A stretch of DNA of 64,000 nucleotides from Nitrospirota bacterium. Lineage in GTDB: Bacteria > Nitrospirota > Thermodesulfovibrionia > Thermodesulfovibrionales > JdFR-86. Where the stretch lies: contig CAVRJY010000002.1 of NCBI GenBank assembly GCA_963721805.1, forward strand, positions 64,001 through 128,000, read 5' to 3'. A model generated the notes under the pieces. It worked only from the letters and a program-made list of their open reading frames with translations, was not told the origin of the DNA and did no database searches. The first letter of the stretch is position 1, and each line of letters starts with the position of its first letter. Shown here piece after piece: positions 1 to 55,095 of the stretch. Made by a program: the position numbers and the translations under genes.

Positions 1-1292
1 AGTCCGAGCGAGTCATGCGCTGGTGGGCCGACGTATTCCCGATAGAGGCCGCGCCGGAGCCGGACCCCAAGCACACCGACAAGGTCATGCTGCGGCGAGA
101 CCGCCTCTCGCGGATATTCTTCCTCGGGAAGTTCTTCCCGTACCCGATCCGGCTGACTCTGGACGTGATGCGCAAGCTGGGCGCGCTTCGTGCATTTAAG
201 ATATGCCTGAGCTACCTCATGGTCCGCCTCAGGCCGATCAGGCCCGAGCGGTCGCTCGAGGACTTCTTCATCAACCGCTTCGGACGCGAGCTGTACCTCA
301 CGTTTTTTAAGGGCTACACCGAGAAGGTCTGGGGCGCGCCGTGCGCCGAGATCTCGCCCGAGTGGGGCGCTCAGAGGATCAAGGGCCTCTCGGTAGGGCG
401 GGCGGTCAGCCACGCGATAAGGCAGTCGCTTGGGGGTGGGCAGCCGGCCGTTGAGACGAGCCTGATCGAGAATTTTTTGTACCCCAAGCTCGGGCCGGGC
501 CAGCTCTGGGAGGAGGTCGCGGCGCGGGTGCAGCAGCGCGGGGGCAAGGTGATAACGGGCGCGGAGGTGGTGGGCGTCGAGACCTCGGGCAGGCGCGTGA
601 CTGCTGTCACGGCCAAAGACCGGCAGACGGGCGGGCTTCAGCGCCATGAGGCGGACTGGTTCTTCTCGACCATGCCGGTGCGCGAACTTGTCGCGGCGAT
701 GGGCGAGGCGGTGCCGCAAGATGTGAGGGACGCGGCTGCGGGCCTGCAATACCGCGATTTCATGACCGTGGGGCTGCTGCTTAAAAAGCTCAAGACTCCG
801 GTGCCGGACAACTGGATATACGTCCAGGAGCGCGGGGTCAGGATCGGGAGGCTACAGGTCTTCAATAACTGGAGCCCGTGGCTCGTAGCCGACCCGGAAG
901 GCACGGTATGGCTGGGGCTTGAGTACTTCTGCACCGAGGGGGACGGGATGTGGTCGATGCCTGACGACGAGTTCGCGCGGTTCGCGATAGGCGAGCTTGC
1001 CTCGATCGGGCTGATCGATCCAGCCGACGTCCTCGACCATAAGGTGCTTCGCGTGCCCAAGGCATATCCGGCATACATCGGCGGGTACGATAGATTCGGC
1101 GTGGTCAGGCGATACCTCGACGGACTCGAAAACCTCTTCCTGATCGGCCGAAACGGGATGCACCGGTATAACAATATGGACCACTCGATGCTGACCGCGA
1201 TGGCCGCGGTCGAAAACATCATCGCTGGGCGCACTGACAAGACCAATATATGGGCGATCAACGCTGAGGACGACTATCACGAGGGTTCATGA
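1..1292 (+). CDS. NAD(P)/FAD-dependent oxidoreductase (protoporphyrinogen oxidase / UDP-galactopyranose mutase-like), 5'-truncated by window
   Basis: Motifs FFKGYTEKVWG, FLYPKLGPGQLW, GRNGMHRYNNMDHSMLTAM typical of this polysaccharide-locus flavoprotein family; frame is open from the window start. Confidence 0.8.
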   Translation, partial: SERVMRWWADVFPIEAAPEPDPKHTDKVMLRRDRLSRIFFLGKFFPYPIRLTLDVMRKLGALRAFKICLSYLMVRLRPIRPERSLEDFFINRFGRELYLTFFKGYTEKVWGAPCAEISPEWGAQRIKGLSVGRAVSHAIRQSLGGGQPAVETSLIENFLYPKLGPGQLWEEVAARVQQRGGKVITGAEVVGVETSGRRVTAVTAKDRQTGGLQRHEADWFFSTMPVRELVAAMGEAVPQDVRDAAAGLQYRDFMTVGLLLKKLKTPVPDNWIYVQERGVRIGRLQVFNNWSPWLVADPEGTVWLGLEYFCTEGDGMWSMPDDEFARFAIGELASIGLIDPADVLDHKVLRVPKAYPAYIGGYDRFGVVRRYLDGLENLFLIGRNGMHRYNNMDHSMLTAMAAVENIIAGRTDKTNIWAINAEDDYHEGS

Positions 1293-1461
1293 AAGCGCTC
1301 CAAATCGCTTGATACTGCGTCACGCCTCGCAGCCCGATCCTCAACGTATGTCCATATACGCCTCCGGTCGGTCTGCTCGCCGCTCCTTGTCTGAAGACGA
1401 TTTGGGCGCGCTTTCGGGGGAGAGAATAACGTAGCCCCCCGCGCCCCACGAGGTCAACGGC
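1288..1461 (+). repeat. Palindromic RPE/MITE-like repeat, copy R1
   Basis: AAAGCGCTCCAAATCGCTTGATAC...GATTTGGGCGCGCTTTCGGGGG...GGTCAACGGC; close reverse-complement match to 24727-24905. Confidence 0.85.
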
Positions 1462-1524
1462 TTATATTAAGAGCATCATGACCGTTGCCCCTGCCGCACA
1501 TGGAATGGAAGGGAATTCAGTCGA

Positions 1525-2085
1525 TTAATCCTCAGCTCTCCATGCGATAAGGTCTAAGTGTATTCGATGATTAAAACTGTATTCATTTTTTGCCATATCT
1601 GTTGCAACTGACTGATAATTATCGTTTGTTACCTTATTTATTGCAGTTATCGTAGTCCATTTAGTGTTCTTATTATGGGAATCTAATTTTTTACCAACAT
1701 AGCTATCTAAAGGGACTTCAAGGAACGGCATTAAATGGCTCAACTGATATTTTTCATATATGAATCGATTATAACAAGCGTTGCGCATAAATATATTTAA
1801 ACATTTTCGCGCTATACCCCAAAGCGCAGTCTTTTCCTTAGAGTGATCTATGATTAAATATAATTTGTCAACCAAATTCTTTGTATGCTCGTCTATTATG
1901 TTTGAGTAATCCGCTTCATTCATAATCAACCTGAATTGATTGAAATCCATTCCGCCCAGATATTCTCTAACGCATTTACCAGTCCCCGTTGGATATCCCC
2001 TTACTGTACTAACCCCTATGGAAACGTTTGCGAGATGTTTCGTTAATGCCTTATAAAAATCAAATACATTGGCCTTATCATTCAT
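1525..2085 (-). CDS. Hypothetical protein, AT-rich accessory gene (possible HhH/DNA-glycosylase-like fold)
   Basis: 186 aa ORF with GGAGG RBS; composition much more AT-rich than the flanks; WGIARKCLNIFMR...VPLDSYV motif. Confidence 0.7.
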   Translation of the reverse strand: MNDKANVFDFYKALTKHLANVSIGVSTVRGYPTGTGKCVREYLGGMDFNQFRLIMNEADYSNIIDEHTKNLVDKLYLIIDHSKEKTALWGIARKCLNIFMRNACYNRFIYEKYQLSHLMPFLEVPLDSYVGKKLDSHNKNTKWTTITAINKVTNDNYQSVATDMAKNEYSFNHRIHLDLIAWRAED

Positions 2086-2225
2086 GTTTCATAGCCTCCA
2101 CTCTGTGATTTAATATGAAACAATAAAACTGAGAGAGTTAAATGGCACCAGCCAGTTCTCATCCCGATGTGCATCATGCTCCAAAGATACCACAACCGCT
2201 CGGAGTATACCAAACATTTTTCCGA

Positions 2226-2560
2226 GGGCTGCCGACGTTCATTAACCATAGTTAATCGAAAGTTAGTAGAAAACGCACGGGCATCAATTTTTCCTATCAA
2301 CTTAGGTTTATATATAAACCGTAGGATATCGCTTTTTTCATTTCTTTGTGATTTAATACGGGATGATGCTTAGATGGGTATTTTTGAGGTCGCGGAAAGC
2401 GAAGTTGGACGCCGATGGAGCGGTGGAAAACGTTTCTGAACGCATGAACATGGGAGTGGTCAAATTATCGATGAAATCCGCTGGCTTGGACTGTTTTTTC
2501 TCTGTTCATTTGAACGCTCAAAAAAAATGCGCGTACGCGCGCGGTAAGTATGTATATAAC
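2226..2560 (-). repeat. Origin-like non-coding module, copy A
   Basis: Reverse-complement homology to 20897-21232, including the perfect palindrome GGTTTATATATAAACC (2305-2320) and a CG-run/TATA motif. Confidence 0.7.
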
Positions 2561-2587
2561 TAAGGTGACGAGCGCAGGTCTAATTAA

Positions 2588-2762
2588 GCCGTTGACCACG
2601 AGGCGCGGAGGCAGCGGCTGGGCCGCGCACTTCGCAAAGCGCGATAAATCGCGTCAGGCTAGGAACGGCGAGGAAAACGTCCGCAAGTGTACTGAGACGT
2701 ACTCTGGAGGACGGATTTCCGAAGCCGTGACAACGTATCACGCGACTTTAGCGCGCTTTCAA
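2588..2762 (-). repeat. Palindromic RPE/MITE-like repeat, copy R2
   Basis: Reverse complement shares GTGATACGTTGTCACGGCTTCG...GAGTACGTCTCAGTACAC...CTCGCCGTTCCTAG with 20703-20876. Confidence 0.85.
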
Positions 2763-2809
2763 GAGGGCAAAGTTTGCAGCAGCTTTAGCCAAGAAGGTAT
2801 AATGCGTTG

Positions 2810-3937
2810 ATGAAGAAAGCGCTGATAACGGGCATCACCGGCCAGGACGGTTCCTATCTGGCCGAGCTGCTTCTGGAGAAGGACTACGAAGTCCACGGCA
2901 TGGTCCGCCGCTCCAGCATGTTCAACCGCGGCCGCATCGACCACATATACGTCGACCCGCACGCTAAGGGCGCGCACCTCTTCCTGCACTACAGCGACCT
3001 CGCGGACGCCGGCAACATCACGAGCCTGATCTACAACGTCGCGCCTGACGAGATATACCACCTCGGCGCGCAGAGCCACGTCCGCGTGAGCTTCGACGTC
3101 CCTGAGTACACGGGCGACGTGACCGGTCTCGGGACCACGCGCATACTCGACGCGATGCACAGGAGCGGCTCGAAGGCGCGGTTCTATCAGGCCTCGTCAA
3201 GCGAGATGTTCGGCGCCACACAGCCACCTCAGAACGAGAGTTCGCCGTTTTATCCGCGCAGCCCCTATGCGGCCGCGAAGGTCTACGCCTACTGGATGAC
3301 CGTCAACTACCGCGAGGCCTACGGGATGTATGCCTGTAACGGGATACTGTTTAACCACGAGAGCCCGCGCCGGGGCGAGAACTTCATCACGCGCAAGATC
3401 ACGCTCTCGCTCGCGAACATACTGGCCGGCCGCGCGGAGAAGCTCTACCTCGGCAACCTCGAGGCCCGGCGCGACTGGGGCTTCGCCCCGGAGTACGTCG
3501 AGTGCCAGTGGCGCATCCTGCAGCAGGACCGCCCGGCGGATTACGTTATCGGCACAGGCGAGAGCCACTCGGTCCGCGAGTTCCTGCTCGAGGCATTCGA
3601 GTACGCGGGGATAGGGCTTGAGCTTAAGGGCACGGGCGCGGGCATCAAGGGCGTCATAAGCTCGGTGCGCGGCGACTGCCCGCTCAAGCCCGGACACGTC
3701 GTGCTCGAGATAGACCCGAAGTTCTTCCGCCCGACCGAGGTCGACTACCTGCTTGCGGACATAACGCGTTCGCGCGAGGTTTTAGGATGGGAGCCGAAGG
3801 TCACGTTTAAGGAACTCGTGCGGATCATGGTGGACGCGGACCTCATCGGCCACGGGCTCGCTGCCCCCGGCGACGGCCAGCGCGTACTGAAGGAAAAGGG
3901 CCTCACCTGGTTTAAGGCCGACTCGACCTCCCGCTGA
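2810..3937 (+). CDS. gmd: GDP-mannose 4,6-dehydratase
   Basis: [47 protein letters not shown]. Confidence 0.97.
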
Positions 3938-11389: not shown

Positions 11390-11748
11390 TCCAGGCAGGT
11401 CTTCTGACTCCCGGTTCGTCCTACTCGTCCTGCCTTCCCGTCCTTTCGAACAGTGGCGTTGAACCTATCTCAAAATTGCTTCTGGCTGCAAGAGGCTGAA
11501 ATCGCGGGATACTGTGTCGTAAAGGGAAAAATCGTTCCTCGATGTAGCGCTGCTACACCTGCGTCCGATTTTTCCTTTACTCCTTGTCTGCCACGATTTC
11601 CCCTCTCTTTCGCTTCAGAATCAATTTTGAGACAGGTTCCGCTGAACTTTCGTCCCCGGTTACAGCGGCGGGACCGTCCCCGAATCCAACGGGGTTCCCT
11701 ATTAAGCCCCCGGTCTGAGATCAGACCGTATGGGCGCCTGGAGCAGAG
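11390..11748 (-). ncRNA. Cobalamin riboswitch with a 179-bp internal insertion
   Basis: Minus strand reads AGGCGCCC...TTAATAGGGAACCCCG...CGGGGACGGTCCCGCCGCTGTAACCGGGGACGAAA...GCCACTG...GGGAAGGC...GAGTCAGAAGACCTGCC. Confidence 0.9.
11461..11639. mobile_element. MITE-like palindromic element, copy R3, inside the riboswitch
   Basis: 24-bp terminal inverted repeats GAACCTRTCTCAAAATTGMTTCTG (2 mismatches); core GATACTG..GTAGCGCTGCTACAC..CTCCTTGTCTG shared with the other copies. Confidence 0.85.
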
Positions 11749-11871
11749 ATTATATGAAAAACCGGAGGACCAAAGCAAGATCGTATTTCAGCCCCCGGCG
11801 AGGCGGCCCCCTTCGGCGGGAAGAACTCTATGTTATTGACACTATTTCCTAAAGTTTGCTAAGGTTCTTAG

Positions 11872-20702: not shown

Positions 20703-20876
20703 ATGAAAGTGCGCGAAAGTCGCGCCAAATCGCGTGATACGTTGTCACGGCTTCGAAGACGCGCCCTCGGAGTACGTCTCAGTACACCGTCGGGCGGTCT
20801 TCTCGCCGTTCCTAGTCTGACGCTGATTTCTCGCGCTTTAAGTTTCTGATGTCTCCATGAGCGAGCGGTCAACGGC
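20703..20876 (+). repeat. Palindromic RPE/MITE-like repeat, copy R4
   Basis: Core shared with R2; tail CGCGCTTTAAGTTTCT...GCGAGCGGTCAA shared with R6. Confidence 0.85.
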
Positions 20877-20896
20877 ATGGTTTGAGGGCCGGTCAT

Positions 20897-21232
20897 ACGC
20901 ATATATACGCATATCGCGCGCGCGCGTTTTATTTTATGTGTTCGGATGTTTGAGGCAAATAAGCGGCTAACCATCTGGAAAACATCGTTTTTCTGAGTCC
21001 GGCGCTGTTCGGATGTTCGGATAATTCGCGCGGTTTTCGACCCTGCCTCCGAACGCGCGTCGATGCCCGCCTCATTCGCTTCACAGCCCATCGGATATGC
21101 ATCTATCTTGCTCATAGCACCACTATACAACAAACAATGCGATACTTTGGTTTATATATAAACCGAAGTTGATAGGAAAAATTGACCCTCGTGCGTTTTC
21201 TATTAACTATAGTTAGTGAAGATGGCAGTCTG
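20897..21232 (+). repeat. Origin-like non-coding module, copy B
   Basis: CATATATACGCATA-(CG)n-TTTTATTTTAT, TGTTCGGATG repeats, palindrome GGTTTATATATAAACC (21149-21164). Confidence 0.75.
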
Positions 21233-21429
21233 AATCGAGGCATTCTTGTGAAATAATGAACCGTGACTATTTTAGAACGAACCTTTGCCGGGTATCCCGC
21301 GGCCATAGCCGCTTTCACAATAGCCCTCGTGCTTTATGGGTATTGCCCGGCCACCGTGGAAATATTTCGATTGGATTTTAATACACCAATGCGGCGGATA
21401 GTGCTATGCTACAAGCGAACAACATTTTT

Positions 21430-21485
21430 TTAAGGAGAAAACCTTAAGGAGAAAACCTTAAGGAGAAAACCTTAAGGAGAAAACC
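21430..21485 (+). repeat. 4x tandem 14-mer TTAAGGAGAAAACC containing the Shine-Dalgarno sequence
   Basis: Four perfect copies ending 4 nt before the ATG at 21490. Confidence 0.95.
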
Positions 21486-21489
21486 ATAC

Positions 21490-22617
21490 ATGGATGATTC
21501 AAAGGAAATCCGTAAATACGAAAAAACCATCGAAGAGAAAAATGTTCTCATCGAGAAGTTACGGGATTCAGTTGCTCTTTTTTCCCGGCAAGCAGATGAC
21601 GCGCAAGTAGCGCGAATTTTCGCTGAGTATATATTCAATACGGTACACGAACCAGTTTTGATCATTGATGGTGAATTCAAGGTCATCACCGCCAATGTCT
21701 CTTTTTATCGCGACTTTGCTGTTACAGAGCAAGACATTGCAAAGAAGTCCCTCTTCAGCATGGCGGACAACAAGTTGGACATCCCGGGATTAAGGAATCT
21801 CCTCAATGAGATATTGCCAGGCAGCGGCCGGATACATAATTTTCAGGTGGAAATCGAACTGGCCGGGATCGGGCTCAGAAAGTTCCTCCTGAATGCCACT
21901 AAAGTCCCCCAAACGGACGATACGAGAGAGTTTATCCTGCTTGCATTCAATGACGTAACCGAGCAATCCCGGATGGATGAGCAAAAAGACACCCTGATGA
22001 GAGAGATGCACCACAGGATAAAAAACAACCTCGCCGTCATCCAGGCGCTGCTGAGGCTTCAGTCAAAGGATATCGACGATGAAATAGCCAGGGAATATTT
22101 CGATGAGACCCATGCGCGTGTGCAATCGATATCCCTGATCCATGAGATGCTGTATCAATCCCGCGACCTTTCAAACATCAATTTCCTGGAATACATAGGC
22201 AAGCTGATTAAATCCCTCGTCCGTTACAATAAAGAAAATTCAATGGTAAGCATTTCGTTAAACATCGAGTCTATTACCCTTGACCTTGACAGCATGCTGC
22301 CGCTTGGATTAATAGTCACCGAACTTGTGACAAACGCATTCAAGTACGCGTTCCCTGATGGAAGGAGCGGGCATATAACGATCGGGCTTTCAAGCAAGGA
22401 TAATGATCACCATGTCCTCAGCGTAAAGGATGACGGGGTAGGCATCCCTCAGGACTTCGATATCAATAAGGCCGATTCTTTTGGGATGAAGATCATATCA
22501 TCCCTGGTCAAGCAGATCAGGGGGGGCTTGGAAATCCTCAGAGATGGCGGGTCGGAATTCAGGATCAGCTTCCGCAACTTGAAGCCATCCGATTTAGCGG
22601 AAAAAAGCGGTTCATAG
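21490..22617 (+). CDS. PAS + HisKA_2 signal-transduction histidine kinase
   Basis: REMHHRIKNNL, TELVTNAFKYAFP, DDGVG, SFGMKII. Confidence 0.88.
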   Translation: MDDSKEIRKYEKTIEEKNVLIEKLRDSVALFSRQADDAQVARIFAEYIFNTVHEPVLIIDGEFKVITANVSFYRDFAVTEQDIAKKSLFSMADNKLDIPGLRNLLNEILPGSGRIHNFQVEIELAGIGLRKFLLNATKVPQTDDTREFILLAFNDVTEQSRMDEQKDTLMREMHHRIKNNLAVIQALLRLQSKDIDDEIAREYFDETHARVQSISLIHEMLYQSRDLSNINFLEYIGKLIKSLVRYNKENSMVSISLNIESITLDLDSMLPLGLIVTELVTNAFKYAFPDGRSGHITIGLSSKDNDHHVLSVKDDGVGIPQDFDINKADSFGMKIISSLVKQIRGGLEILRDGGSEFRISFRNLKPSDLAEKSGS

Positions 22618-22664
22618 GCTGCGCTGGTCCCGGATAGCATTGACGGTTCAACTCCCGGTCGCAT

Positions 22665-22729
22665 GTCTTTAAAGGAAACTTCCCAAGATGGACGATCTGT
22701 TCAAGGGCGCCGGGGGACTCTTGGCCCGC
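22665..22729 (+). pseudogene. Degenerate duplicate of the selA 5' end
   Basis: Translates RKLPKMDDLFKGAGGLLAR versus SelA RKLPKVDDLLKAAGGLIAR (24980-25044). Confidence 0.75.
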
Positions 22730-22846
22730 GCCATCGCCAATCACGCATATACCGTTTCATAATTTTGAACGCATATTTTTCTTGATTTATTATTTCCCCC
22801 GGCACATAATACTCGGCAGAAATATATCTCGCTGGGGAGGCGAACA

Positions 22847-22969
22847 ATGGCTAAGGATAAATTTTTAAGGTTGTTGTGTCTTTTGGTGTCTGTTGTGCTC
22901 GTTTCATTTGTCGCAGGCTGCACTGGCAGCGGCAGCAGCGGGAGCGTCTTTACTGGACGAACAGCTTGA
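22847..22969 (+). pseudogene. Truncated lipoprotein gene remnant
   Basis: GGGGAGG RBS; MAKDKFLRLLCLLVSVVLVSFVAG-C lipobox and Gly/Ser linker, then stop inside the convergent gene. Confidence 0.5.
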
Positions 22970-24531
22970 ATTTCTTTTGCGTAATTCTCAGGTACCATTT
23001 CAGGAAAGCGGGAGTGTAAATAACCTTTATGAATTTACTGAGGAACTTATAACGTTTGCTCTGCGCCCAAAACCTCTTGAGGCAATGCCTGCATTGCACG
23101 AGCTTGTTGAAATACCGCAATGAAGCCGGGAAAAGCCATAACTCGGTATTTTCTTGCAGGACATTGAAATTCTTATAGGTGTTGAGTTTGTTGCAGTGCG
23201 GGCACTCGACGCTCAAAGAAGTATCGTCGACCTGCTCCGGGACGGAGGAGGGACTATGATTTATCCTCGCCTTGGTGATTTCCGTCAGGATATAGCAGAT
23301 ATCGTCGACGGGCATCTGGGTCATATTGTACTGGTCGAAGAAATGATTTTCTATATAGTCGATCTTGTCGGAGATGATGCCTTTTTCCACGCAATAGCGG
23401 TAGAGGACGCTGTCGGGGCACGGGAATATAAAATGCAAGAATATGGCGGCCCAGCTGTGCTCCTTCCAGAAAGCCATCGTCTCGTTGAAGGTTTCAAGCG
23501 TTTCTGCGACGTCGCCGAAGATAAAGCCCGCCTGCAGGCCGATGTTATTTTCGAAGGTCATATGCAGGGCCGCGTGGATCTGCTCGGGGGATATTTTCTT
23601 TTTCATGCTTTTCAGTATCGTGTCGCTGTAGCTCTCAAACCCGAAGCTGACGAGATAGCAGCCGGCTTCCTTCATCGCCTTCAGCATTTCGGAAGAAATC
23701 CTGTCGACGCGGAGCTGGCAGAACCATACCACGTCCCACTGGACCGTTTTCTTCAATTCGGAAAACTTCCTGCAGAACTCAAAGACCCTGTCCTCGTTAT
23801 ACGCAAACAGCTCGTCATAAATCGAGACGAGGTTGATGCGGTACTTCGGGATGGCCAGGCTTAGCTCCTCGATTATCGAGTCTATCGAGCGCTGCCTGTA
23901 TTTGTTGCCCAGCGGGTGATAGCAAAATGTGCACTGGTAGGGGCAGGAACGCGACGCGATGAGCGGGTAGACCCGCGGATAATCGAATAAATAATTGACG
24001 ATATTGTCGGAGGACTTGGCCGCATCCAGCGACAGGCCCAGTTCGAGCGCTTCCCAATCCGGCAAGGGCAATGCGTCTAGGGCGTCTATGGGTTTCCTCT
24101 TGCCGGTGCATACAAACTTGCCGTTGTCGAAAAAACCGATGCCGTCCACCCCGTCGACGGGCGCGCCGCTTCGGATGGCCGTGACAAGTTCGACTATGGT
24201 GACCTCTCCCTCGCCTATAACCGCATAATCGATCCCAAGGTGCGACGATATAAGTTTCGGGTTCGGAGGTTATTATGCCGCCGCCCACTATCAGCTTGCA
24301 GCCGAAAGGCTTCGCGGTCTGGATTATCTTCCTTATCTCTTTCAGCTCGCAGGAGAGGCCGCCTGTGGCGACGATATCGTACTTGTTGTCTCTCAGGACC
24401 TGCGGCAGCGTGCCGGCCCTGTGTTTGCTCAGACAATCGACGTCAAAACCCGCTTGTTTCAAGGAGGCGACGATATAAGCGATACCTGGAGACTCAAGTG
24501 AGTTCGGCGGATTTACACATAAAATTTTCAT
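22950..24531 (-). CDS. B12-binding domain radical SAM protein (frameshift near 24240)
   Basis: N-terminal B12-binding part in ORF 23815-24531; SRSCPYQCTFC CxxxCxxC motif in ORF 22950-24149. Confidence 0.85.
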
Positions 24532-24726
24532 ATATTTATAAGCGGTTTCCCCTTAGAGATATATTTATTTTCGATAGCATAGCACATGGACAACCGCCAT
24601 TGTGAGAAATATAGGCATTAAATAGCCGAAATTATCTTGCGGCAACCATGGGCTGCTTACCGCCCCTGTGATATAATTCACGATGGCCAGGGACACCGCG
24701 CGGGCGTATTATTAAATCCAATCTAA

Positions 24727-24905
24727 GTCTTTGACCTCGTGGGGGTGCGGGGGGGCGTCCGTTGTCCTCTCCCCCCGAAAGCGCGCCCAAATCGGCTTCA
24801 GACTAGGAACCGGACGAAAAACGACCGCAGTCGTATATGGACATACTTCGAGGATCGTTTTTCGGACGGTGACGACGTATCAAGCGATTTGGAGCGCTTT
24901 GAAAA
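24727..24905 (-). repeat. Palindromic RPE/MITE-like repeat, copy R5
   Basis: Reverse complement closely matches R1. Confidence 0.85.
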
Positions 24906-24963
24906 AAAGCCAGTGCAGCCATTTTCTAATTAATGGGCCTCTTTCCCTATGATATAATTGCCA

Positions 24964-34108: not shown

Positions 34109-34180
34109 TTACCAGAACCGCTCATCGCTCATTTACCAGAACCGCTCATCGCTCATTTATCAGATCCGCTCATCGCTCAT
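34109..34180 (-). repeat. 3x tandem 24-mer, each unit an ATG...TAA mini-ORF, directly upstream of murJ
   Basis: Minus strand: ATGAGCGATGAGCGGATCTGATAA then ATGAGCGATGAGCGGTTCTGGTAA twice, then the murJ ATG. Confidence 0.92.
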
Positions 34181-42420: not shown

Positions 42421-42434
42421 GCCCTTATGCAGTC

Positions 42435-42599
42435 TTTTTCAAAGCCGCACTAAATCGCTTGATACTGCGTCATCAGTCGAAAATCGCCCTCGGAGTACAT
42501 CCCAGTACACCTGCGGGACGATTTTCTCCTTCTTCCTTGTCTGACGCGATTTATCGCGCTTTAAGTTTCTATCGCATAATCGTGCGAGCGGTCAATGGC
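42435..42599 (+). repeat. Palindromic RPE/MITE-like repeat, copy R6 (solo)
   Basis: AAATCGCTTGATACTGCGTC...GGAGTACATCCCAGTACAC...CCTTGTCTGACGCGATTT...GGTCAATGGC. Confidence 0.85.
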
Positions 42600-49004: not shown

Positions 49005-49020
49005 GTCTGTTATCGTGACT

Positions 49021-49199
49021 TTCTTCAAAGCGCACCAAATCGCTTGATACTGCGTTGGGCATCAAAGACTCGCCCTCTATGTACGCCCAAGTACACCATC
49101 GGGCGGTCTTCTCGCCCTGCCTTGTCTTAAGCCGATTTGGGCGCGCTTTCGGGGGTGTGGAAGCCAACATACGCCCCCCGGCCCCCCAAGGTCAAAGGC
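49021..49199 (+). repeat. Palindromic RPE/MITE-like repeat, copy R7
   Basis: CAAATCGCTTGATACTGCG...GATTTGGGCGCGCTTTCGGGGG...GGTCAAAGGC. Confidence 0.85.
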
Positions 49200-49212
49200 A
49201 TGATTGGAATAG

Positions 49213-49372
49213 GCAACTCGTGAGACAGTAACCGCGCTCCGTCTGAAAGCGAGCGATATTTCGGCAGACAAGGAACGCCGAGGAAAACGTCCGAAGGTGT
49301 ACTGATTGTACATCGAGGACGGATTTCCGAGGCAGTGACGCAGTATCCCGGAATTGCAGCCGCTTTCAGCGC
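49213..49372 (-). repeat. Palindromic RPE/MITE-like repeat, copy R8 (inverted relative to R7)
   Basis: CAAGGAACGCCGAGGAAAACGTCCG..TGTACTGATTGTAC..GAGGACGGATTTCCGA matches the R2 core. Confidence 0.75.
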
Positions 49373-49375
49373 GCT

Positions 49376-49703
49376 TAGGCATATATACGCATACCCCGCG
49401 CGCGCGCCTTTTATTTTATAGTGTTCGGATGTCAGCGTTAAAACGGCCCTAACATTGCGGAAAACAACGCTATTATGGGTTCCACCCTGTTCGGATGTTC
49501 GGATGTTTTTGACCGAAAAAAGGGTAATGTTCGAGTCCAGTTTTGCGGTTGGTTTAAGTCCGTAATCGTTCCCAATCTCCGGCGTTATTAAATTGGTGTT
49601 TTTGTATATCACGCGCGAGGATAGAACGCAAAAGCGGAACCCGTCAATGGGAACTGGTTCCTAGGAACCAGTTCCATGGAACCAGTTCCTAGGAGTTGGT
49701 TCC
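49376..49703 (+). repeat. Origin-like non-coding module, copy C, with GGAAC-NN-GTTCC palindrome array
   Basis: 49376-49510 aligns with 20897-21030; four 12-bp units at a 14-bp period at 49650-49703. Confidence 0.75.
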
Positions 49704-49706
49704 GCT

Positions 49707-50906
49707 TGTAAAGGTTACGCTCTTACCGGACAGTATCAGGCTGGAAAAAGCAGGCGGCAGCCAGCCCTTCCATCGGTTAGAATGTTTCACCACAAAACAC
49801 AGACCGAAGGAGGAAGGGCATGACTGCCAAAGAAAAGATATCACAAGGGAGGCTTTCAATGCTTCAGCTGGCCGAGAGGCTCAGGAACGTGTCGGAGGCC
49901 TGTCGCCGCCGGGGGGTGAGCCGCAGCCAGTTTTACGAGTACAAGCGGGCGTTTCAGGAGCAGGGGTTTGCGGGGCTCGCGGACCTTCCGCCGATAGCGC
50001 GTAGCTGTCCCCACAAGACGCCTGAGGAGGCCCGCAAGCGAGTGATCGAGATGAGCCTTGCTCACCCCCGGTGGGGGAAGCAGCGCATCTTCGAGCACCT
50101 GCTTCTGGAGGGCATATTGGTGCGTCCCTCAACTGTGTATCGCATCCAGGTTCGCGAGGGGCTGGAGTCGAAGGCCAAGCGCATCCTCCGGCTTGAGCAG
50201 GAGGCTAACGGCAAGGAGATCGAGCTAACGGAGGAGCAGGTCAAGCTCATCGAGCGGGCCAATCCGTGCTTCAGGGAAAGGCATGTGGAGAGCGCATATC
50301 CGGGCTATCTGCTCAGCCAGGACACCTTCACGGTGGGCAAGCTCAAGGGCATCGGGACCGTGTATCTGCAGGCCGTGGTGGACACGTACGGCTCTTATGC
50401 CTTCGGCAAGCTGTACACGTCGAAGAGGCCCGAGACGGCGGCCGACGTGCTCTACGACCGCGTGCTGCCGTTTTACGAGGACCATGGCATCAGGGTCCAG
50501 CATGTCCTGACGGACAACGGCTCGGAGTACTGCGGCAAGCTGCTGCGGCATCCGTACGAGCTGTTTCTGGCGCTTCACGACATCGCGCATCGAAGGACGA
50601 AGGTGGCGACACCGAGGACAAACGGATTCGTGGAGCGGTTTAATCGCACCATCCTGGACGAGTTCTTCTCGGAGACGTTCAGGTACCGGTTCTACGCATC
50701 GCTCGATGAGCTGCAGTATGACCTCGACCGGTGGCTGCACCACTACAACAACGAGCGCCCTCACAAGGGCTATCGCAACATGGGCAGACGGCCAATAGAA
50801 ACTATCGAGCTGGGCAAAAAGCTAAGACAGAAAGCTGAGGAGGAGGCCGCCTGATCAGTGCGACCGATGAGATGGAAAACTGTCCGGAGAGCACTGGACT
50901 TTTACA
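49707..50906 (+). mobile_element. IS481-family insertion sequence
   Basis: TGT...ACA imperfect TIRs (TGTAAAGGTTACGCTCTTACCGGACAGT / TGTAAAAGTCCAGTGCTCTCCGGACAGT); 7-bp target duplication TTCCGCT. Confidence 0.92.
49820..50854 (+). CDS. IS481-family DDE transposase
   Basis: NVSEACRRRGVSRSQFY HTH, SQDTF, LTDNGSEY, PRTNGFVERFNRT, YNNERPH. Confidence 0.95.
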   Translation: MTAKEKISQGRLSMLQLAERLRNVSEACRRRGVSRSQFYEYKRAFQEQGFAGLADLPPIARSCPHKTPEEARKRVIEMSLAHPRWGKQRIFEHLLLEGILVRPSTVYRIQVREGLESKAKRILRLEQEANGKEIELTEEQVKLIERANPCFRERHVESAYPGYLLSQDTFTVGKLKGIGTVYLQAVVDTYGSYAFGKLYTSKRPETAADVLYDRVLPFYEDHGIRVQHVLTDNGSEYCGKLLRHPYELFLALHDIAHRRTKVATPRTNGFVERFNRTILDEFFSETFRYRFYASLDELQYDLDRWLHHYNNERPHKGYRNMGRRPIETIELGKKLRQKAEEEAA

Positions 50907-50986: not shown

Positions 50987-52447
50987 ATGTTGGCCAATAT
51001 TGACTCGATGAGGATTGAAGCCTCTTCACGACTTCATCCAACTAGAAAATCAGCCTTGGGACAATTCATGACCCCAAATTCAATCGCCGAGTTTATGGTT
51101 ACACTTTTTAACAAATTCGATAAAGATATACGGCTATTGGATGCAGGTGCGGGAATAGGTTCACTTTCCCTTGCGTTCCTTGATAAAGCTATTTCTAATG
51201 CAGCCTCAATTCATATAGATGCATGGGAAATGGAACAGATACTATTGCCGTATTTGAAATCAAATTTAATTCATTATCAAAAAGAAGCAATGTATAATGG
51301 TGCGCTTTTGCAGTTCAATATTCATGATGATGATTTCATTGAGAATGCAGTTTTGAGTTTAGCCGCCAACAGGAGCAGCCAATACACCCATTGCATTATT
51401 AATCCTCCGTACAAAAAGATAAACTCTAATTCAAAGCATAGGTTTCTTTTGCGGAAATTAGGCATAGAAACAGTCAACCTCTATACAGCTTTTCTTGCTC
51501 TATGTATTCGGCAGCTTCAAAGTAAAGGGCAATTAGTTGCGATAGTACCGCGCAGTTTTTGCAATGGCACATACTATAAACCATTTAGACAGCTTCTTCT
51601 TGAAACCTGCTGCATTTCTCATATCCATGTATTTGAGTCAAGAAAAAAAGCATTCAAGGACGAAGGTGTATTGCAGGAGAACATTATTGTTAAACTCATT
51701 AAGAATCGTCCTCAATCAAAGATTAGAATTTCATCATCTCACGATGATAGCTTTTTAGATTACACTGTTCGTGAGGTTGAGGCGAATGATGTAATAATGA
51801 ATGGAGAGACTGATTATTTTATCCGCATACCAATAAAATCAAAACCTGTGACAAGTTCACCCCTATTCGAGTACTCACTTGGTCAGCTTCTACTCGGGGT
51901 CTCTACTGGGCCAGTGGTTGATTTTAGGGTTAAAGAATATTGCTCTAATAAGCCCAATAGCAAATCTGTTCCATTGCTATATCCAAAGCACTTCTCCAAT
52001 GGTGAACTTATTCATCCAAAGGAAATAAAAAAGCCAAGTTGGATCACATTAAATTCTGAAACAAGCAAATGGTTGATGCCGAAAGGCTTCTATACTCTTG
52101 TGAAACGTTTTTCTGCGAAAGAAGAAAAAAAGAGAATTGTCGCCTATGTTGTAAATCCAAATGAATTAATAGGAGACTATTTTGGATTCGAAAATCATTT
52201 CAATATATTTCATGTCAATAAACATGGCTTAGATGAGAACATGGCATACGGACTTGCTTTGTTTCTCAACTCATCCTTAGTCGATAACTATTTCAGAACT
52301 TTTTCAGGACATACCCAAGTTAATGCAAATGATTTACGTTTAATCAAATATCCAAGTAAGAGGTTATTGATGGAGCTTGGCAGAAAGTATAAACATAAGA
52401 TACTTACTCAAACACAAATAGACCAAGCAATTTCCATCAATGAGTAA
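50987..52447 (+). CDS. Type II N6-adenine DNA methyltransferase (BsuBI/PstI-like)
   Basis: LGQFMTP, LLDAGAGIGSL, INPPYKK, FSGHTQVNA. Confidence 0.9.
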   Translation: MLANIDSMRIEASSRLHPTRKSALGQFMTPNSIAEFMVTLFNKFDKDIRLLDAGAGIGSLSLAFLDKAISNAASIHIDAWEMEQILLPYLKSNLIHYQKEAMYNGALLQFNIHDDDFIENAVLSLAANRSSQYTHCIINPPYKKINSNSKHRFLLRKLGIETVNLYTAFLALCIRQLQSKGQLVAIVPRSFCNGTYYKPFRQLLLETCCISHIHVFESRKKAFKDEGVLQENIIVKLIKNRPQSKIRISSSHDDSFLDYTVREVEANDVIMNGETDYFIRIPIKSKPVTSSPLFEYSLGQLLLGVSTGPVVDFRVKEYCSNKPNSKSVPLLYPKHFSNGELIHPKEIKKPSWITLNSETSKWLMPKGFYTLVKRFSAKEEKKRIVAYVVNPNELIGDYFGFENHFNIFHVNKHGLDENMAYGLALFLNSSLVDNYFRTFSGHTQVNANDLRLIKYPSKRLLMELGRKYKHKILTQTQIDQAISINE

Positions 52448-53380
52448 AAAGCAACGAATAAAAGAAGCGCTTAGCATTTTAGCTGACCTTGGAATGCCAC
52501 GTGCGCAATTGAATGAACGGAGTGCACTCTGTCTTTTGGCCTTATTAAATTTGCGCCCCGACAAAGGTTGGGCTTCGTCGGAAAGCCCTCTTATCGGAAT
52601 TACTCCGATTATGGATTGGAGCAGAGATTTTTATGGTACACATTATGCGCCGAATACACGAGAAACATTTCGAAGGCAAACAATACACCAATTCATTCAG
52701 GCTGGGATTGCATTGATAAATCCAGATAAGCTTGACAGAGCAGTGAATAGCCCTCACACTGTATATCAGATAGAGCCTCAGCTATTGAATATACTAAAAC
52801 AGTTTGGGACTAAGCGCTATAGAACGCAACTCGCGTCTTTTCAAGAAAAACGACCCTCTTTAGCAAAGCAATATGCTAAGAATAGAGATATGCTACAAAT
52901 TCCCGTCAAGTTAACCGATAAATTGGAGATTCGGCTAAGTGCTGGGCATCATAGCCAGCTTATTACGGCTATCATTGAAGAATTTGCTTCTAGATTCGTC
53001 CCTGGCGGGATTCCGATTTATGTGGGTGACACAGGGGATAAATTTGCATATTTTGATGAGGTAAAGTTATCCGGCCTTGGAGTGCAAACGGACAACCACG
53101 GCAAAATGCCTGATGTTGTGATTTATTACCGTGAAAAAAACTGGCTTGTTCTTGTAGAGGCTGTTACAAGCCATGGGCCTATGGATGGGAAGCGGCATCT
53201 TGAACTTTCAGAGTTATTTAACAAATGTTCCGCTGGTTTAGTGTTTGTTTCAGCATTTCCTGATAAAAAACGATGAATAAATACCTTGAAGTAATTGCTT
53301 GGGAGACGGAAGTATGGATAGCCGATAATCCAACACATTTAATTCATTTTAACGGTATAAGATTCTTAGGCCCATACTGA
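52440..53380 (+). CDS. BsuBI/PstI-family restriction endonuclease (frameshift in A6 run at 53265-53270)
   Basis: [30 protein letters not shown]-terminus IAWETEVW...HFNG.RFLGPY lies in the shifted frame. Confidence 0.9.
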
Positions 53381-53672
53381 CGGGAAAATAGTGACAGAGC
53401 TCATTGTCTGACGGAAACAGGGACGTTCCTATCTATCCAAGTTCTAACTAGCTATTCAAAAAATCCTCATTGCATATTGGAATAATTACTAATTCATCGG
53501 ATCTGTTTGGTAAATGGCATCACGAGCTCGGTGCGGGGGCGCATAGCATCCCGCCTAAGATCAAATGGGTTTTAATCGCATTACGCTAGTGTCGCGTGCT
53601 TTCACATGCCCCATTGCCATGCGCTAGTGAAAATGCTTTAATATATTGACAGGTCGAATCAACAGGAGGCTG

Positions 53673-53855
53673 ATGCACATGGGCAAGGCGGCAGACATGG
53701 TGGAGATACCGAAAGAGGAGTACTCGCTTCTGAAGGAACTGTTCAGGACCGTAAAGCGGCAGAACCTGCTCCTTCGTATCTCCGAGGCTGAGAAGAACCT
53801 CAAGGCGGGCAAGGTCAAAAAGGTCTCGGCGGACAAATTCATCGACGGCATATAA
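53673..53855 (+). CDS. Putative antitoxin
   Basis: Small ORF with AGGAGG RBS directly upstream of the toxin; AEKNLKAGKVKK. Confidence 0.65.
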   Translation: MHMGKAADMVEIPKEEYSLLKELFRTVKRQNLLLRISEAEKNLKAGKVKKVSADKFIDGI

Positions 53856-53862
53856 TCCCCCT

Positions 53863-54141
53863 GTGAAACCCAGATACATACTCTTTGATTCGGCGTTTGA
53901 AAAACGATTTTCCAAGTATAAATCCCGCCTTGACGAAGCCGGACGAAGTCACCTTAAGCAAAGGTTTGAACTTTTCAAGGAAGATGTTTTTGACAAGCGG
54001 CTCAAGACGCATAAGCTGAAAGGCAACCTTGGTGCGTACTATGCCTTCTCAGTAAACCATTCCGACAGGATAGTCTTCAAGGTACTCGACGATGAGGGCG
54101 TGTTTCTCATCGAGGTAGGAAGCCACGACGAGTGTTATTGA
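53863..54141 (+). CDS. RelE/YafQ-family mRNA interferase toxin
   Basis: LKTHKLKGNL..YYAFSV...RIVF...EVGSHDECY. Confidence 0.85.
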   Translation: MKPRYILFDSAFEKRFSKYKSRLDEAGRSHLKQRFELFKEDVFDKRLKTHKLKGNLGAYYAFSVNHSDRIVFKVLDDEGVFLIEVGSHDECY

Positions 54142-54163
54142 TCTGAGGGGAAAACAGGGACAG

Positions 54164-54958
54164 TCATCGGATCTGTTTCGTGAATGGCATCAAGATGAGG
54201 GTTGGGAGGCCGAGCTTGTCCGGTTCGCGGTAAGGGCCGACGCCGATTACGATGGTTTCCTGTGACACGTCCCTGACCAGCGTGCCTAACATCCTGTCCC
54301 ACACAGAGAGGATCGTCCCATAGTTCGTGTCGCGCTCGAAGACCTTCACGGAATGGTGTATGCGGTGCATCGATGGCGGGACGAAGACCGTCCAAAACAC
54401 GCTTTCAAGCGATTTCGGCACACGGAGGCTGCTGTGCTGAAACTGGGCCGCGAGCACAAGCAGGCTCTCAAAAATAATGACGCCGACCATTCCGGCTCCA
54501 AGGAAATAGATGAGCCCAAGCTTGATGACCGCGGAGATCGAGAGTTCCCCGATGTGGAACCGTGATGCCGTCGAGACATCCATGTTGATGTCGCTGTGGT
54601 GCACGCGGTGAAAGCGCCAAAACAGCGGGACCTTGTGGTTCAGCATATGCCAGACATAGAGCATGAAGTCCATGACCAAAACCGTCAATGTGACATTCGC
54701 CCATAGCGGCAGCGCGACCATATTAAGGAGCCCGACCCGGTGTTCGGTCACGTACGCGGCTTCATTGGCCGTGGCGGCGGCGAATAAGATTGTGAGGATC
54801 GCGCTGTTTATGATCGCGAGCGAGATGTTCGTCATGACCCGCTTCGCCTTCGCGACCGTCGGGTTGCGATAAGGCCTGACGTATTCCAGCAGCAGGAAAA
54901 AGAAGAACCCACCCCAAAAGGCCATGAGGCGTATCAAGACGGCGTTTAGGTGGATCAT
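54164..54958 (-). CDS. Sterol desaturase / fatty-acid hydroxylase family protein
   Basis: His boxes YVWHMLNH, FHRVHHSD, FQHS, HRIHHS. Confidence 0.9.
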   Translation of the reverse strand: MIHLNAVLIRLMAFWGGFFFFLLLEYVRPYRNPTVAKAKRVMTNISLAIINSAILTILFAAATANEAAYVTEHRVGLLNMVALPLWANVTLTVLVMDFMLYVWHMLNHKVPLFWRFHRVHHSDINMDVSTASRFHIGELSISAVIKLGLIYFLGAGMVGVIIFESLLVLAAQFQHSSLRVPKSLESVFWTVFVPPSMHRIHHSVKVFERDTNYGTILSVWDRMLGTLVRDVSQETIVIGVGPYREPDKLGLPTLILMPFTKQIR

Positions 54959-55095
54959 TAAAACATTGTAGGCTAATCCGTATGCTAAGACAAGATCAGC
55001 TCAATTAGCGATCTGCCCCGAAAAGACTTATTATTTCACTATTAACGCGAGCGAAATTCCGGCAGACAAGGGGCGCTGCCCCCTAAAATTATAAC

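Follow-up and report, generated by a model that had tools for sequence, protein, structure and literature searches.

Polar folded repeats border small low-GC gene cassettes in a Nitrospirota genome

Correia/NEMIS elements, the MITEs of Neisseria, are characterised by a TA duplication. They are small, non-coding, palindromic and high-copy, occupy intergenic DNA at the ends of genes and lack a transposase of their own (passages of PMC10969869). Mobile insertion cassettes, as presented in PMC3129680 and PMC5444012, consist of inverted IS-type ends around passenger genes without a transposase, and would have to be mobilised in trans. The dif modules of Acinetobacter plasmids are small accessory modules, often with toxin-antitoxin genes, between inversely oriented 28-bp Xer sites, and their mechanism is only partly understood (PMC6449649, PMC13141974). 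REP/REPIN-RAYT systems comprise abundant extragenic hairpin-forming repeats of 20-40 nt at gene ends, and integron cassettes form an attC array of one orientation beside intI/attI.

The repeat family analysed here, SRE, comprises 234 copies of a ~185-nt folded repeat in a 2.78 Mb genome (nhmmer; assembly completeness 94%). The copies, of 130-185 nt, make up 1.29% of the genome, are small and non-coding, as MITEs are, and are 70-96% identical to one another. An SRE has a short T-rich tail, and its head is an extension of ~50 nt that terminates in GGTCAAMGG, the best-conserved end of the repeat; tail and head of one copy are unlike and are not inverted repeats of each other, the paired arms being those of the core. 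The family resembles Correia elements in all the traits cited above from PMC10969869, but the 185-nt SRE has dissimilar ends, no detectable duplication, a fixed polarity with respect to foreign DNA and an accompanying module of 400 nt (module X), and the cognate autonomous IS with the same ends by which MITEs are recognised was not found for it. Pairs of SREs enclose passenger genes without a transposase, as in mobile insertion cassettes; here, however, no resident IS shares the ends, there is no flanking duplication and no duplicated cassette among the matches listed, the ends are 185 nt long and structured, and the module stands at one end only. Like the dif modules, the SRE cassettes are small accessory modules, often with toxin-antitoxin genes, between inversely oriented sites, but they are chromosomal, are bordered by 185-nt repeats instead of 28-bp sites and hold the candidate recombinase-type palindrome at most once each. 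The SRE shares with REP/REPIN its abundance, its hairpins and its position at gene ends, whereas its core is ~130 nt long and no RAYT is present, the sole Y1 transposases being six identical IS200 copies with hairpins of their own; Y1_Tnp is absent from at least three core-bearing genomes (G002, G003, G006). In contrast to integron cassettes, SRE pairs are inverted and dispersed, with no tyrosine recombinase near them.

The window, a stretch of 64,000 nt from contig CAVRJY010000002.1 of assembly GCA_963721805.1, contains three islets (Table 1). An earlier note on this DNA had recognised them from the sequence, and its placement of R1, R2, R4, R5, R7 and R8 was reproduced by nhmmer; the GGTCAA(C/A)G ends do point inward in both of the first two islets and islet cargo is low in GC (0.388 and 0.484), as it had described. 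Modules A, B and C share sequence (BLAST). The tail of R1 overlaps the TGA stop (1290-1292) of an upstream oxidoreductase ORF, and its head (GGTCAACGG) is directed towards the cargo; the variant head of R4 ends in the same GGTCAACGG at 20867-20875. The gmd gene (Pfam GDP_Man_Dehyd, E 1.6e-135) starts ~45 nt beyond the tail end of R2, and the tail of R5 lies ~60 nt upstream of the next gene, labelled selA in the earlier note. The 186-aa ORF of islet 1 gave no match in Pfam, PADLOC or NCBIfam, and its nearest clusters are uncharacterised bacterial proteins (Atlas feature search, score 0.97); the cargo of islet 2 gave a weak PADLOC match, PDC-M51A. Of the two repeats assigned to the third islet, R7 opens it as proposed, and R8 proved to be a nested core-only copy rather than an islet end. 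A weak closing remnant of 33 nt, 85% like R8, may be present there, although nhmmer did not confirm it. The IS481-family element of islet 3 has TGT...ACA inverted ends of its own, is flanked by a TTCCGCT duplication and matches the K43 cassette copy at 100% over 1200 bp; it inserted secondarily and does not belong to the cassette machinery. The matching of end subtypes by position holds for the four named copies (identity of 0.83 for R2-R4 and 0.82 for R1-R5, against 0.73-0.79 for cross pairs) and is weak genome-wide, where module-end SREs are 0.80 identical among themselves, other-end SREs 0.737 and the two classes 0.761 to each other. Within a cassette, the opposite ends (0.78 over 46 pairs) are no closer to each other than random pairs (0.765). 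An Rfam scan of the window at gathering thresholds returned a cobalamin riboswitch only and no SRE match, and a permissive scan of 48950-49700 returned one chance-level miRNA match outside the repeats.

Table 1. Repeats, modules and cargo of the three islets and one solo repeat in the window
Feature	Position	Strand	Basis
R1, full-length SRE	1285..1463	+	nhmmer model 4-184, E 5e-46
Islet 1 cargo, AT-rich 186-aa ORF, no known family	1525..2085	-	ORF list
Module A (module X family), between R2 head and cargo	2131..2590	-	BLAST to module copies; consensus
R2, full-length SRE, inverted	2586..2764	-	nhmmer 6-184, E 8e-27
R4, core (20715-20839) plus variant head	20715..20875	+	nhmmer 10-133, E 2e-29; sequence
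Module B (module X)	20876..21235	+	TGTTCGGAT iterons; palindrome at 21149-21164
Islet 2 cargo (three ORFs)	21490..24531	.	Pfam, NCBIfam, PADLOC
Islet 2 histidine kinase	21490-22617	+	Pfam HisKA_2/HATPase_c
Islet 2 B12-type radical SAM protein	22950-24149	-	Pfam Radical_SAM; NCBIfam
Islet 2 238-aa ORF	23815-24531	-	ORF
R5, full-length SRE, closes islet 2	24725..24907	-	nhmmer 4-184, E 9e-43
R6, solo core-only SRE, native-GC DNA	42434..42562	+	nhmmer 4-133; GC profile
R7, full-length SRE, opens islet 3	49019..49201	+	nhmmer 3-184, E 5e-54
R8, core-only SRE between R7 head and module C	49241..49368	-	nhmmer 9-138; sequence
Module C, 5' part of module X (iterons); 3' palindrome part absent	49369..49640	+	
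IS481-family insertion sequence, 1200 bp	49707..50906	+	rve/HTH transposase of 344 aa
Islet 3 cargo (four genes)	50987..54958	.	PADLOC; NCBIfam
Islet 3 type II methyltransferase	50987-52447		PADLOC MTase_II, E 2.5e-172
Islet 3 restriction enzyme	52440-53276		PADLOC REase_II, E 5e-111
Islet 3 RelE/YafQ-like toxin	53863-54141		NCBIfam
Islet 3 OlsE-like hydroxylase	54164-54958	-	NCBIfam
Putative closing repeat of islet 3, decayed (33 nt)	55044..55076	-	85% identity to R8

The recurring order that had been read from the window, namely repeat, module, variable low-GC cargo and inverted repeat with no integrase inside, extends to about 55 cassettes. These 55 inward SRE pairs, 47 of them with cargo GC below 0.52, have a median length of 1863 nt and sum to 4.4% of the genome; all cassette counts leave out K09, K16, K40, K41, K47 and K53, inward pairs with a native-looking interior (GC 0.58-0.65), five of which have gaps above 5 kb. 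Bracketing by chance, through repeats lying in random orientation, does not account for the data: among next-neighbour SRE pairs with a gap of 500-3000 nt, 45/75 face inward against 19 expected (binomial p 1.4e-10) and 7/75 face outward, and GC below 0.52 is found at the head side of 112/230 copies and at the tail side of 5/230 (Fisher p 1e-34). Viewed from the foreign segments, 84 of the 156 stretches of low GC that reach 500 nt or more are bordered by an inward SRE head. The cargo consists of toxin-antitoxin, restriction-modification and abortive-infection genes and orphans. A Pfam scan, which left out K60, identified HepT/MNT (3 pairs), DUF4258/DUF2283, DUF2442/DUF4160, Gp49+HTH, PemK, ParE/Phd, HicA, MmeI, methylase+Mrr, Abi_C and KAP NTPase; no Pfam family was assigned to 78 of the 140 cassette ORFs. 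These genes are typical selfish or defence passengers. About 93 SREs lack a partner and have DNA of native GC on the head side, so the repeat spreads or persists by itself and not just as a cassette end; 23 of them carry an alternative head extension of ~95 nt. Head-to-head dimers without cargo also occur, one of them at C5:25037/25210 with a spacer of 8 nt, and one SRE copy (C5:73523) has a 16-nt duplication.

Module X, of ~400 nt, is located between SRE head and cargo and was found at 44 heads. It occupies exactly one end in 32/55 cassettes and both ends in none, whereas independent placement at the ends predicts 4.7, and the ORF nearest to it reads away from the module in 21/29. The module harbours a GC hairpin with a T-run at its start, TGTTCGGAT iterons, two 16-nt palindromes and, in the consensus, a near-perfect 26-nt palindrome with an AT-rich centre; the palindrome occurs once in 22/55 cassettes and twice in 0/55. 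In module A the palindrome GGTTTATATATAAACC lies at 2305-2320 and the hairpin plus T-run, a terminator-like site, at 2542-2529. A simple consensus scan of module X revealed no promoter-like sites above shuffles, and a search of 150 other genomes of the order did not return the module.

Outside this genome, the repeat was absent from 30 relatives in a BLAST-type DNA search (0/30), while a covariance model of the core detected it in 12/150 other genomes of the order. The element of these relatives has both outer inverted repeats and a fixed length of 177 nt in 22/41 copies, with TA on both sides in 12 of these 22, and in these terminal inverted repeats and TA flanks it resembles MITEs; it is neither paired nor GC-polar (40 loci, four related genomes). 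The SRE core is homologous to this TA-flanked element. This relationship is new here, and the element, a candidate undescribed one in the earlier note, is at its root not of an undescribed kind. The SRE derives from a palindromic miniature transposable element and is specific to its lineage; in this genome the outer inverted repeats of the 177-nt form have been replaced by an unlike tail and head, and the family has expanded to 234 copies.

We favour, at a probability of roughly one in three (0.35), the reading that the islets are passenger-carrying, non-autonomous transposon-like cassettes built on MITE-derived ends. They would then be units of the mobile insertion cassette type, with two inverted SREs, tails outermost, acting as long terminal repeats. 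The module, ~400 nt long and next to one of the heads, would be the vestigial leader of a lost transposase gene, whose place the passenger genes would now occupy. Insertion would target TA, commonly within or next to TAG/TAA stops of host genes, and movement of the cassettes would depend on a transposase supplied in trans, which would be unrecognised or missing from the assembly, 94% complete as it is. In favour of this reading are the copy number and polarity, the one-sided module, the foreign-type cargo, the descent from a transposable element, the dimers without cargo and the location of tails at TAG/TAA stops. In 133/220 SREs a frame of at least 100 codons enters the tail and ends within -40..+20 nt, against a background of 10.9%, and TAG accounts for 63/133 of these stops against 31% genome-wide (p 4e-5).

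That cassettes move as wholes in trans, as had been suggested for the islets of the window, was not borne out by the analyses. No direct repeats beyond shuffled pairings were found flanking 48 cassettes, the fuzzy tail terminus keeping a 2-nt TA out of the score, and direct repeats of at least 7 nt around single SREs showed no excess over shuffles (221 copies). IS copies and module aside, no cargo recurs among the best matches listed, and thus there is no sign of recent cassette transposition; the cassette ends are unmatched and the solo copies are numerous. No transposase sharing SRE ends was found in the genome, where IS481 and IS200 were the only IS seen, each with ends unrelated to SRE. 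The genome search yielded no IS110, TnpB, relaxase or IS630-type DDE, and one resolvase within a large low-GC region; DDE_3 is absent from G000, G002, G003 and G067. The oxidoreductase, transaldolase or far-side neighbour was adjacent in none of the 11 gmd loci and 19 loci of the selA-labelled gene in relatives, which have 50-70% protein identity and no synteny, so that the empty-site comparison is uninformative.

Two candidate mobilisers were rejected. The hairpins of IS200 are unrelated to SRE, though 2/6 copies lie at the same module position. IS481 has its own ends, and its 1200-bp unit shows 100% identity between copies, against ~93% for the modules beside it. In a search for a rolling-circle/HUH mobiliser, no IS91, Rep_1 or relaxase was found, the IS91 and Rep_1 blanks saying little since control genomes gave no match either.

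The repeats may instead have been kept by selection as insulators or 3'-end elements. SREs would then insert singly, in the manner of MITEs, the cassettes would not be mobile units, and an RNA hairpin running from tail to head would end or stabilise the host transcript and shield it from the islet, in line with proposals for Correia, ERIC and REP sequences. The core fold is conserved, in support of such a role: paired cells reach 88.6%, compared with 29-44% when the partners are slid, and 22/44 core pairs have changes on both sides against 4-14 for slid controls. Both scores use the structure of one SRE copy, which tilts the comparison with the slid controls towards the observed structure. From the raw MAFFT alignment, RNAalifold returned 10 pairs only. 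Paired changes can also arise from the matched inverted arms of a palindromic element, so that an RNA role does not follow from them. A U-G pair kept in 71/72 copies suits folding of the tail-to-head strand, and the GC hairpin with T-run at the start of module X has the same direction; neither strand of the SRE consensus, however, has a hairpin directly followed by a U-run. Position also fits the insulator reading in that the same 133/220 SREs stand directly behind a frame reading into the tail, yet both genes flanking islet 2 read away from it. The solo copies in native DNA, the unrelated left and right ends and the lack of a duplication around cassettes agree with this reading, as does the finding that Correia elements contain promoters and that RNase III cleaves them (passages of PMC10969869). 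The module at 44 heads, never at both cassette ends, and the near-absence of foreign DNA at the tail side are left unexplained, and we regard insulation as a somewhat doubtful account of the islets.

Homologous recombination would offer another route, one that needs neither flanking duplication nor enzyme. Head-to-head SRE pairs would be resident slots, and cargo would be swapped between strains, after DNA uptake, by recombination within the 130-185-nt repeats. Empty head-to-head dimers are present, each cargo seen is unique among the best matches listed, and the ends belong to a shared family at 70-96% identity. Two freshwater-sediment DNA runs contain hundreds of contigs covering the repeats at 80-99% likeness, so a pool of related repeats exists in that habitat; summed depth over the repeats was ~600 in X2, with 18-36 over the module and 0 over the cargo ORF, where lack of cover is not evidence. 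In the same two runs no presence/absence polymorphism was seen at the cassette, however; no joint spanned it, and the only joint at the repeats, from 1420 to 2555 on opposite strands, is explained by repeat similarity. The exact core and module motifs gave 0 matches in metagenome_contigs and 0 in viral_contigs, and a looser core motif gave six single matches to unrelated taxa in genome_contigs, about the number estimated for chance. Such swapping also leaves the origin of inward polarity and of the one-sided module unexplained, and we consider it unlikely. Further down in probability is a novel acquisition system, in effect a dispersed, chromosome-wide integron, in which inward SRE pairs would serve as docking slots, an unrecognised enzyme, possibly reading the folded repeat or the module iterons, would file foreign genes between the heads, and the hairpins would insulate the slots; we hold this to be distinctly unlikely. 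Least probable is site-specific recombination of the dif-module or integron type, by a tyrosine recombinase acting on the head motif or the module palindromes. Inverted sites around toxin-antitoxin-rich modules recall the Acinetobacter dif modules (PMC6449649, PMC13141974), and the strong conservation of the GGTCAAMGG head motif and the near-perfect 26-nt palindrome with its AT-rich centre would suit such an enzyme. That palindrome, though, never occurs twice in a cassette, the repeats are 185 nt long instead of 28-nt sites, neither same-orientation arrays nor an intI/attI arrangement is present, and all seven tyrosine recombinase genes lie away from the palindromes and more than 3 kb from any SRE head (nearest 3.3 kb), which makes this reading very improbable.

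Whether or not the islets are transposon-like cassettes on MITE-derived ends, as we tentatively prefer, more than half of the small low-GC segments of this genome (84/156) are bordered by one repeat family in a fixed polarity. If a mechanism and not selective retention lies behind this, it would amount to a new way to organise or capture acquired defence and toxin-antitoxin genes, and such a capture system, if true, would be built from a domesticated or modified MITE. One element family is found in two states, a plain TA-inserting MITE in the relatives and, in this genome, a polar, cargo-associated derivative with a module, and this contrast makes the transition between them testable.

The studied genome comprises 2.78 Mb in 9 contigs (94% complete, GC ~60%); the window corresponds to C2:64001-128000, and the islet 1 finding spans positions 1288-2762 of the window, a 1.48-kb stretch of 39% GC between an oxidoreductase ORF and gmd. 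A repeat search within the window united the copies R1, R2, R4, R5, R7 and R8 in a single family of structured repeats (SREs) and added a further copy at 42.4 kb; with these seven copies as queries, BLAST matched 238 places in the genome, and an nhmmer profile built from 84 long copies gave 234 matches. The whole 185-nt model is covered by ~129 copies and its first ~133 nt alone (the "core") by ~61, the family totalling 1.29% of the genome. The two ends are named here tail, for the one starting ...TTTTT[C/G]AAAGCGCNCCAAATCG, and head, for the one reading ...CCCCACAAGGTCAAMGGCAT. On the tail side, conservation tapers off 8-12 nt ahead of AAAGCGC, where a weak GCCTTCTTT consensus is found, often preceded by TA. 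A compound form is present at four places, in which a truncated copy (model ~4-75) and then a full copy stand in tandem, joined by a 28-nt linker that has a head-like GGTCAAGCG at its end; the two on contig C4 share 94% identity across 273 nt. A cobalamin riboswitch (11614-11756, minus strand; Rfam, 38.1 bits) adjoins a weak partial core match (11490-11599, plus strand; nhmmer E 1e-6). The window also contains a 24-nt tandem repeat (34101-34180; three copies, 94-100% identity) and a 76-nt direct repeat (58239-58314 and 58608-58683; 72% identity, 369 nt apart), the latter probably reflecting tandem paralogous coding sequence.

Next-neighbour SREs 500-3000 nt apart face inward in 45/75 cases, outward in 7 and in tandem in 23, against ~19 inward expected (p 1.4e-10), and mean GC between the repeats is 0.47 for inward (56 pairs) versus 0.627 for outward pairs (22). 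In the 500 nt past the head, GC is below 0.52 in 112/230 copies, versus 5/230 past the tail and 8.2% of all genome windows. With six inward pairs of native-looking interior left out, 55 cassettes were kept (inward-facing SRE pairs enclosing cargo; median length 1863 nt; 4.4% of the genome), 47 of them with cargo GC <0.52. The architecture proposed in the earlier note stands. Conversely, of the 156 low-GC segments that reach 500 nt, 84 are bordered by one or more inward heads, and the other 72 include several much longer ones (up to ~21 kb; contigs C2, C4 and C5). SRE bracketing of low-GC DNA thus exceeds chance. Among unpaired SREs, head-side DNA is low-GC in 27 and native-GC in 93, and 23 of these 93 have another head extension of ~95 nt with GC-rich hairpins. 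In two head-to-head pairs cargo is nearly absent, the spacer being 8 nt (C5:25037/25210) or ~65 nt (C1:34163/34439).

Behind the head of 44/234 SREs, and in the same orientation, lies a conserved ~400-nt block, module X. It starts with a CG-rich hairpin and a T-run (terminator-like by score in module A, the islet 1 copy), continues with TGTTCGGAT iterons and ends AT-rich with the palindromes GGTTTATATATAAACC and ATTAACTATAGTTAAT, beyond which similarity between copies ceases. By BLAST, the module is present at one end of 32 of the 55 cassettes, at both ends of none (4.7 expected) and at neither end of 23, at least one of which has a short form. Of 31 genomic occurrences of the first palindrome, 28 are 0-500 nt inside a head, and no cassette has more than one. 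The module-adjacent ORF points away from module X in 21/29 cassettes, and a consensus promoter scan of the module gave no sites above shuffles. Module X was not found among 150 genomes of the order, where three 28-37-nt matches were obtained (E 1e-4 to 1e-3).

The cargo set comprised 140 ORFs with a minimum length of 70 aa, drawn from 54 cassettes; 62 had Pfam matches (E <=1e-4) and 78 had none. Matched families comprise type II toxin-antitoxin systems (HepT/MNT three times, DUF2442/DUF4160, DUF4258/DUF2283, Gp49 with HTH, PemK/MazE, ParE/Phd and HicA), restriction-modification (MmeI, and a methylase with Mrr), Abi_C, KAP NTPase, HEPN, HNH, PLD, HD-CE with TPR, SRAP, GNAT, sensor kinases and two insertion sequences. 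Islet 1 (R1-R2) carries a 186-aa ORF without a family, its nearest Atlas clusters being uncharacterised bacterial proteins; islet 2 (R4-R5) a histidine kinase and a B12-type radical SAM protein; and islet 3, opening at R7, a type II restriction-modification pair and a RelE-like toxin. Just 5' of the ATG of the islet 2 kinase, a 14-nt unit with AAGGAG is repeated four times in tandem (21433-21488), and these copies scored terminator-like on the minus strand.

Both insertion sequences move independently and were rejected as mobilisers, each having its own ends, which are not those of the SRE. The IS481-family element is 100% identical among the window copy and seven cassettes (K04, K21, K24, K26, K33, K41 and K43), whereas the module copies beside it are only ~93% alike; it adjoins the inner end of module X in every case examined, pointing to a preference for this region as target. 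Directly left of the insertion point, positions 49632-49708 form a dense nested palindrome (GGAACCAGTTCCTAGGAAC...). The 601-bp IS200 has six identical copies with their own CCCCGTGGCTTGCCACGGGG hairpins, all in or beside cassettes, two of them at the same module X position.

Coordinates of flanking genes, insertion sequences and compound SREs (window positions, or contig:position in the studied genome, G000)
Feature	Position	Description
Oxidoreductase ORF	15-1292	NCBIfam PRK07208 family
gmd	2810-3937	Pfam E 1.6e-135
IS481-family element	49707-50906	1200 bp; 344-aa rve transposase; TGT...ACA ends; TTCCGCT duplication
IS200 copies	C1:42301, 366622, 1252034, 1452182; C4:138543, 146508	
Compound SRE form	C4:172686-172960, C4:189261-189538, C5:86995-87302, C1:1221052-1221333	

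The fold computed for one SRE copy is a rod-like hairpin spanning the core (-81.5 kcal/mol). Across 72 full copies, which include the sequence from which the fold derives, its 44 pairs have 88.6% of cells as standard pairs versus 29-44% with slid partners; both sides changed in 22 pairs (127 cells) versus 4-14 when slid, and the covariation score observed was above that of every shuffle. A U-G pair kept in 71/72 copies indicates the tail-to-head strand. No Rfam family matches the SRE, and covariation is not proof of an RNA role, as matched arms of a palindromic transposable element can co-vary without one.

By BLAST, the repeat was found in 0/30 relatives. A covariance model of the 72 copies, with up to 17 candidates scored per genome, placed the core (model 9-129) in 12/150 other genomes of the order, including 3/10 of the same family and 7/12 of another. 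In 40 loci fetched from four core-positive genomes, a second copy was present in just two and head-side and tail-side GC were similar; the islet-bracketing habit was not seen in these four relatives. Outer inverted repeats (GAACCTRTCTCAAAAT..., or GGCAAYCTCTAAAAAT... in genome G003) delimit 22/41 relative copies as a 177-nt element whose centre is homologous to the SRE core (loci L113-L127 in G067, L093-L107 in G002, L128-L132 in G095 and L108-L112 in G003), 12 of the 22 having TA on both sides. Some G002 copies have a hairpin-containing sequence in place of the left outer repeat, and the first outer motif occurs 7 times in G000. A Y1 transposase is absent from at least three core-positive genomes (G002, G003 and G006), and a full IS630-type DDE domain from the four genomes checked. 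Neither motif, core or module, had an occurrence in the metagenome or viral contig collections. Two freshwater-sediment DNA runs with parts of the islet 1 stretch were compared at 80% likeness: the few short contigs matched in X1 differ from the stretch at 0-1 positions, which places the organism or a near twin in that run, and X2 gave hundreds of contigs on the two repeats (summed depth ~600), a module depth of 18-36 and none for the cargo ORF. No contig of either run joins the flanks across the islet 1 cassette.

The likeliest reading, at a probability of about 0.35, takes the cassettes for non-autonomous, transposon-like units that carry passenger genes and have SREs for long ends; module X would then be what remains of the leader of a transposase gene since lost. 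Mobilisation in trans, as proposed in the earlier note, was not demonstrated: the flanks of 48 cassettes have no direct repeats beyond shuffled pairings, and among the cargo-to-cargo best matches listed only insertion sequence copies and the module recur. Nor is there general duplication around single SREs (221 copies); one copy, at C5:73523, has a 16-nt duplication. Core identity between the left and right ends of one cassette is 0.78, versus 0.765 for random pairs, and the matched end subtypes of the earlier note were not demonstrated. IS110, TnpB, relaxase and IS630-type DDE domains were searched for in the genome and none was found; IS91 and Rep_1 were not found either, negatives that are weak because control genomes also gave no match. 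Somewhat less probable is that SREs are instead insulator or 3'-end elements retained by selection. Frames of at least 100 codons enter the tail and stop within -40 to +20 nt at 133/220 SREs (10.9% at random positions), with stops TAG 63, TAA 39 and TGA 31 against 31, 28 and 41% in long frames genome-wide (TAG excess p 4e-5).

Less probable still is that SRE pairs are landing pads exchanged via homologous recombination. A site-specific recombination system is improbable: the genome encodes one resolvase and seven tyrosine recombinases, several within larger low-GC regions and one Xer-sized, and none of the seven is near an SRE head or a module palindrome. Whichever applies to the cassettes, the SRE itself derives, with high confidence, from a palindromic MITE that inserted at TA. 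In the G000 lineage its outer repeats disappeared, the head was extended, module X was acquired as a companion, and the repeat became linked to foreign DNA in a fixed polarity.
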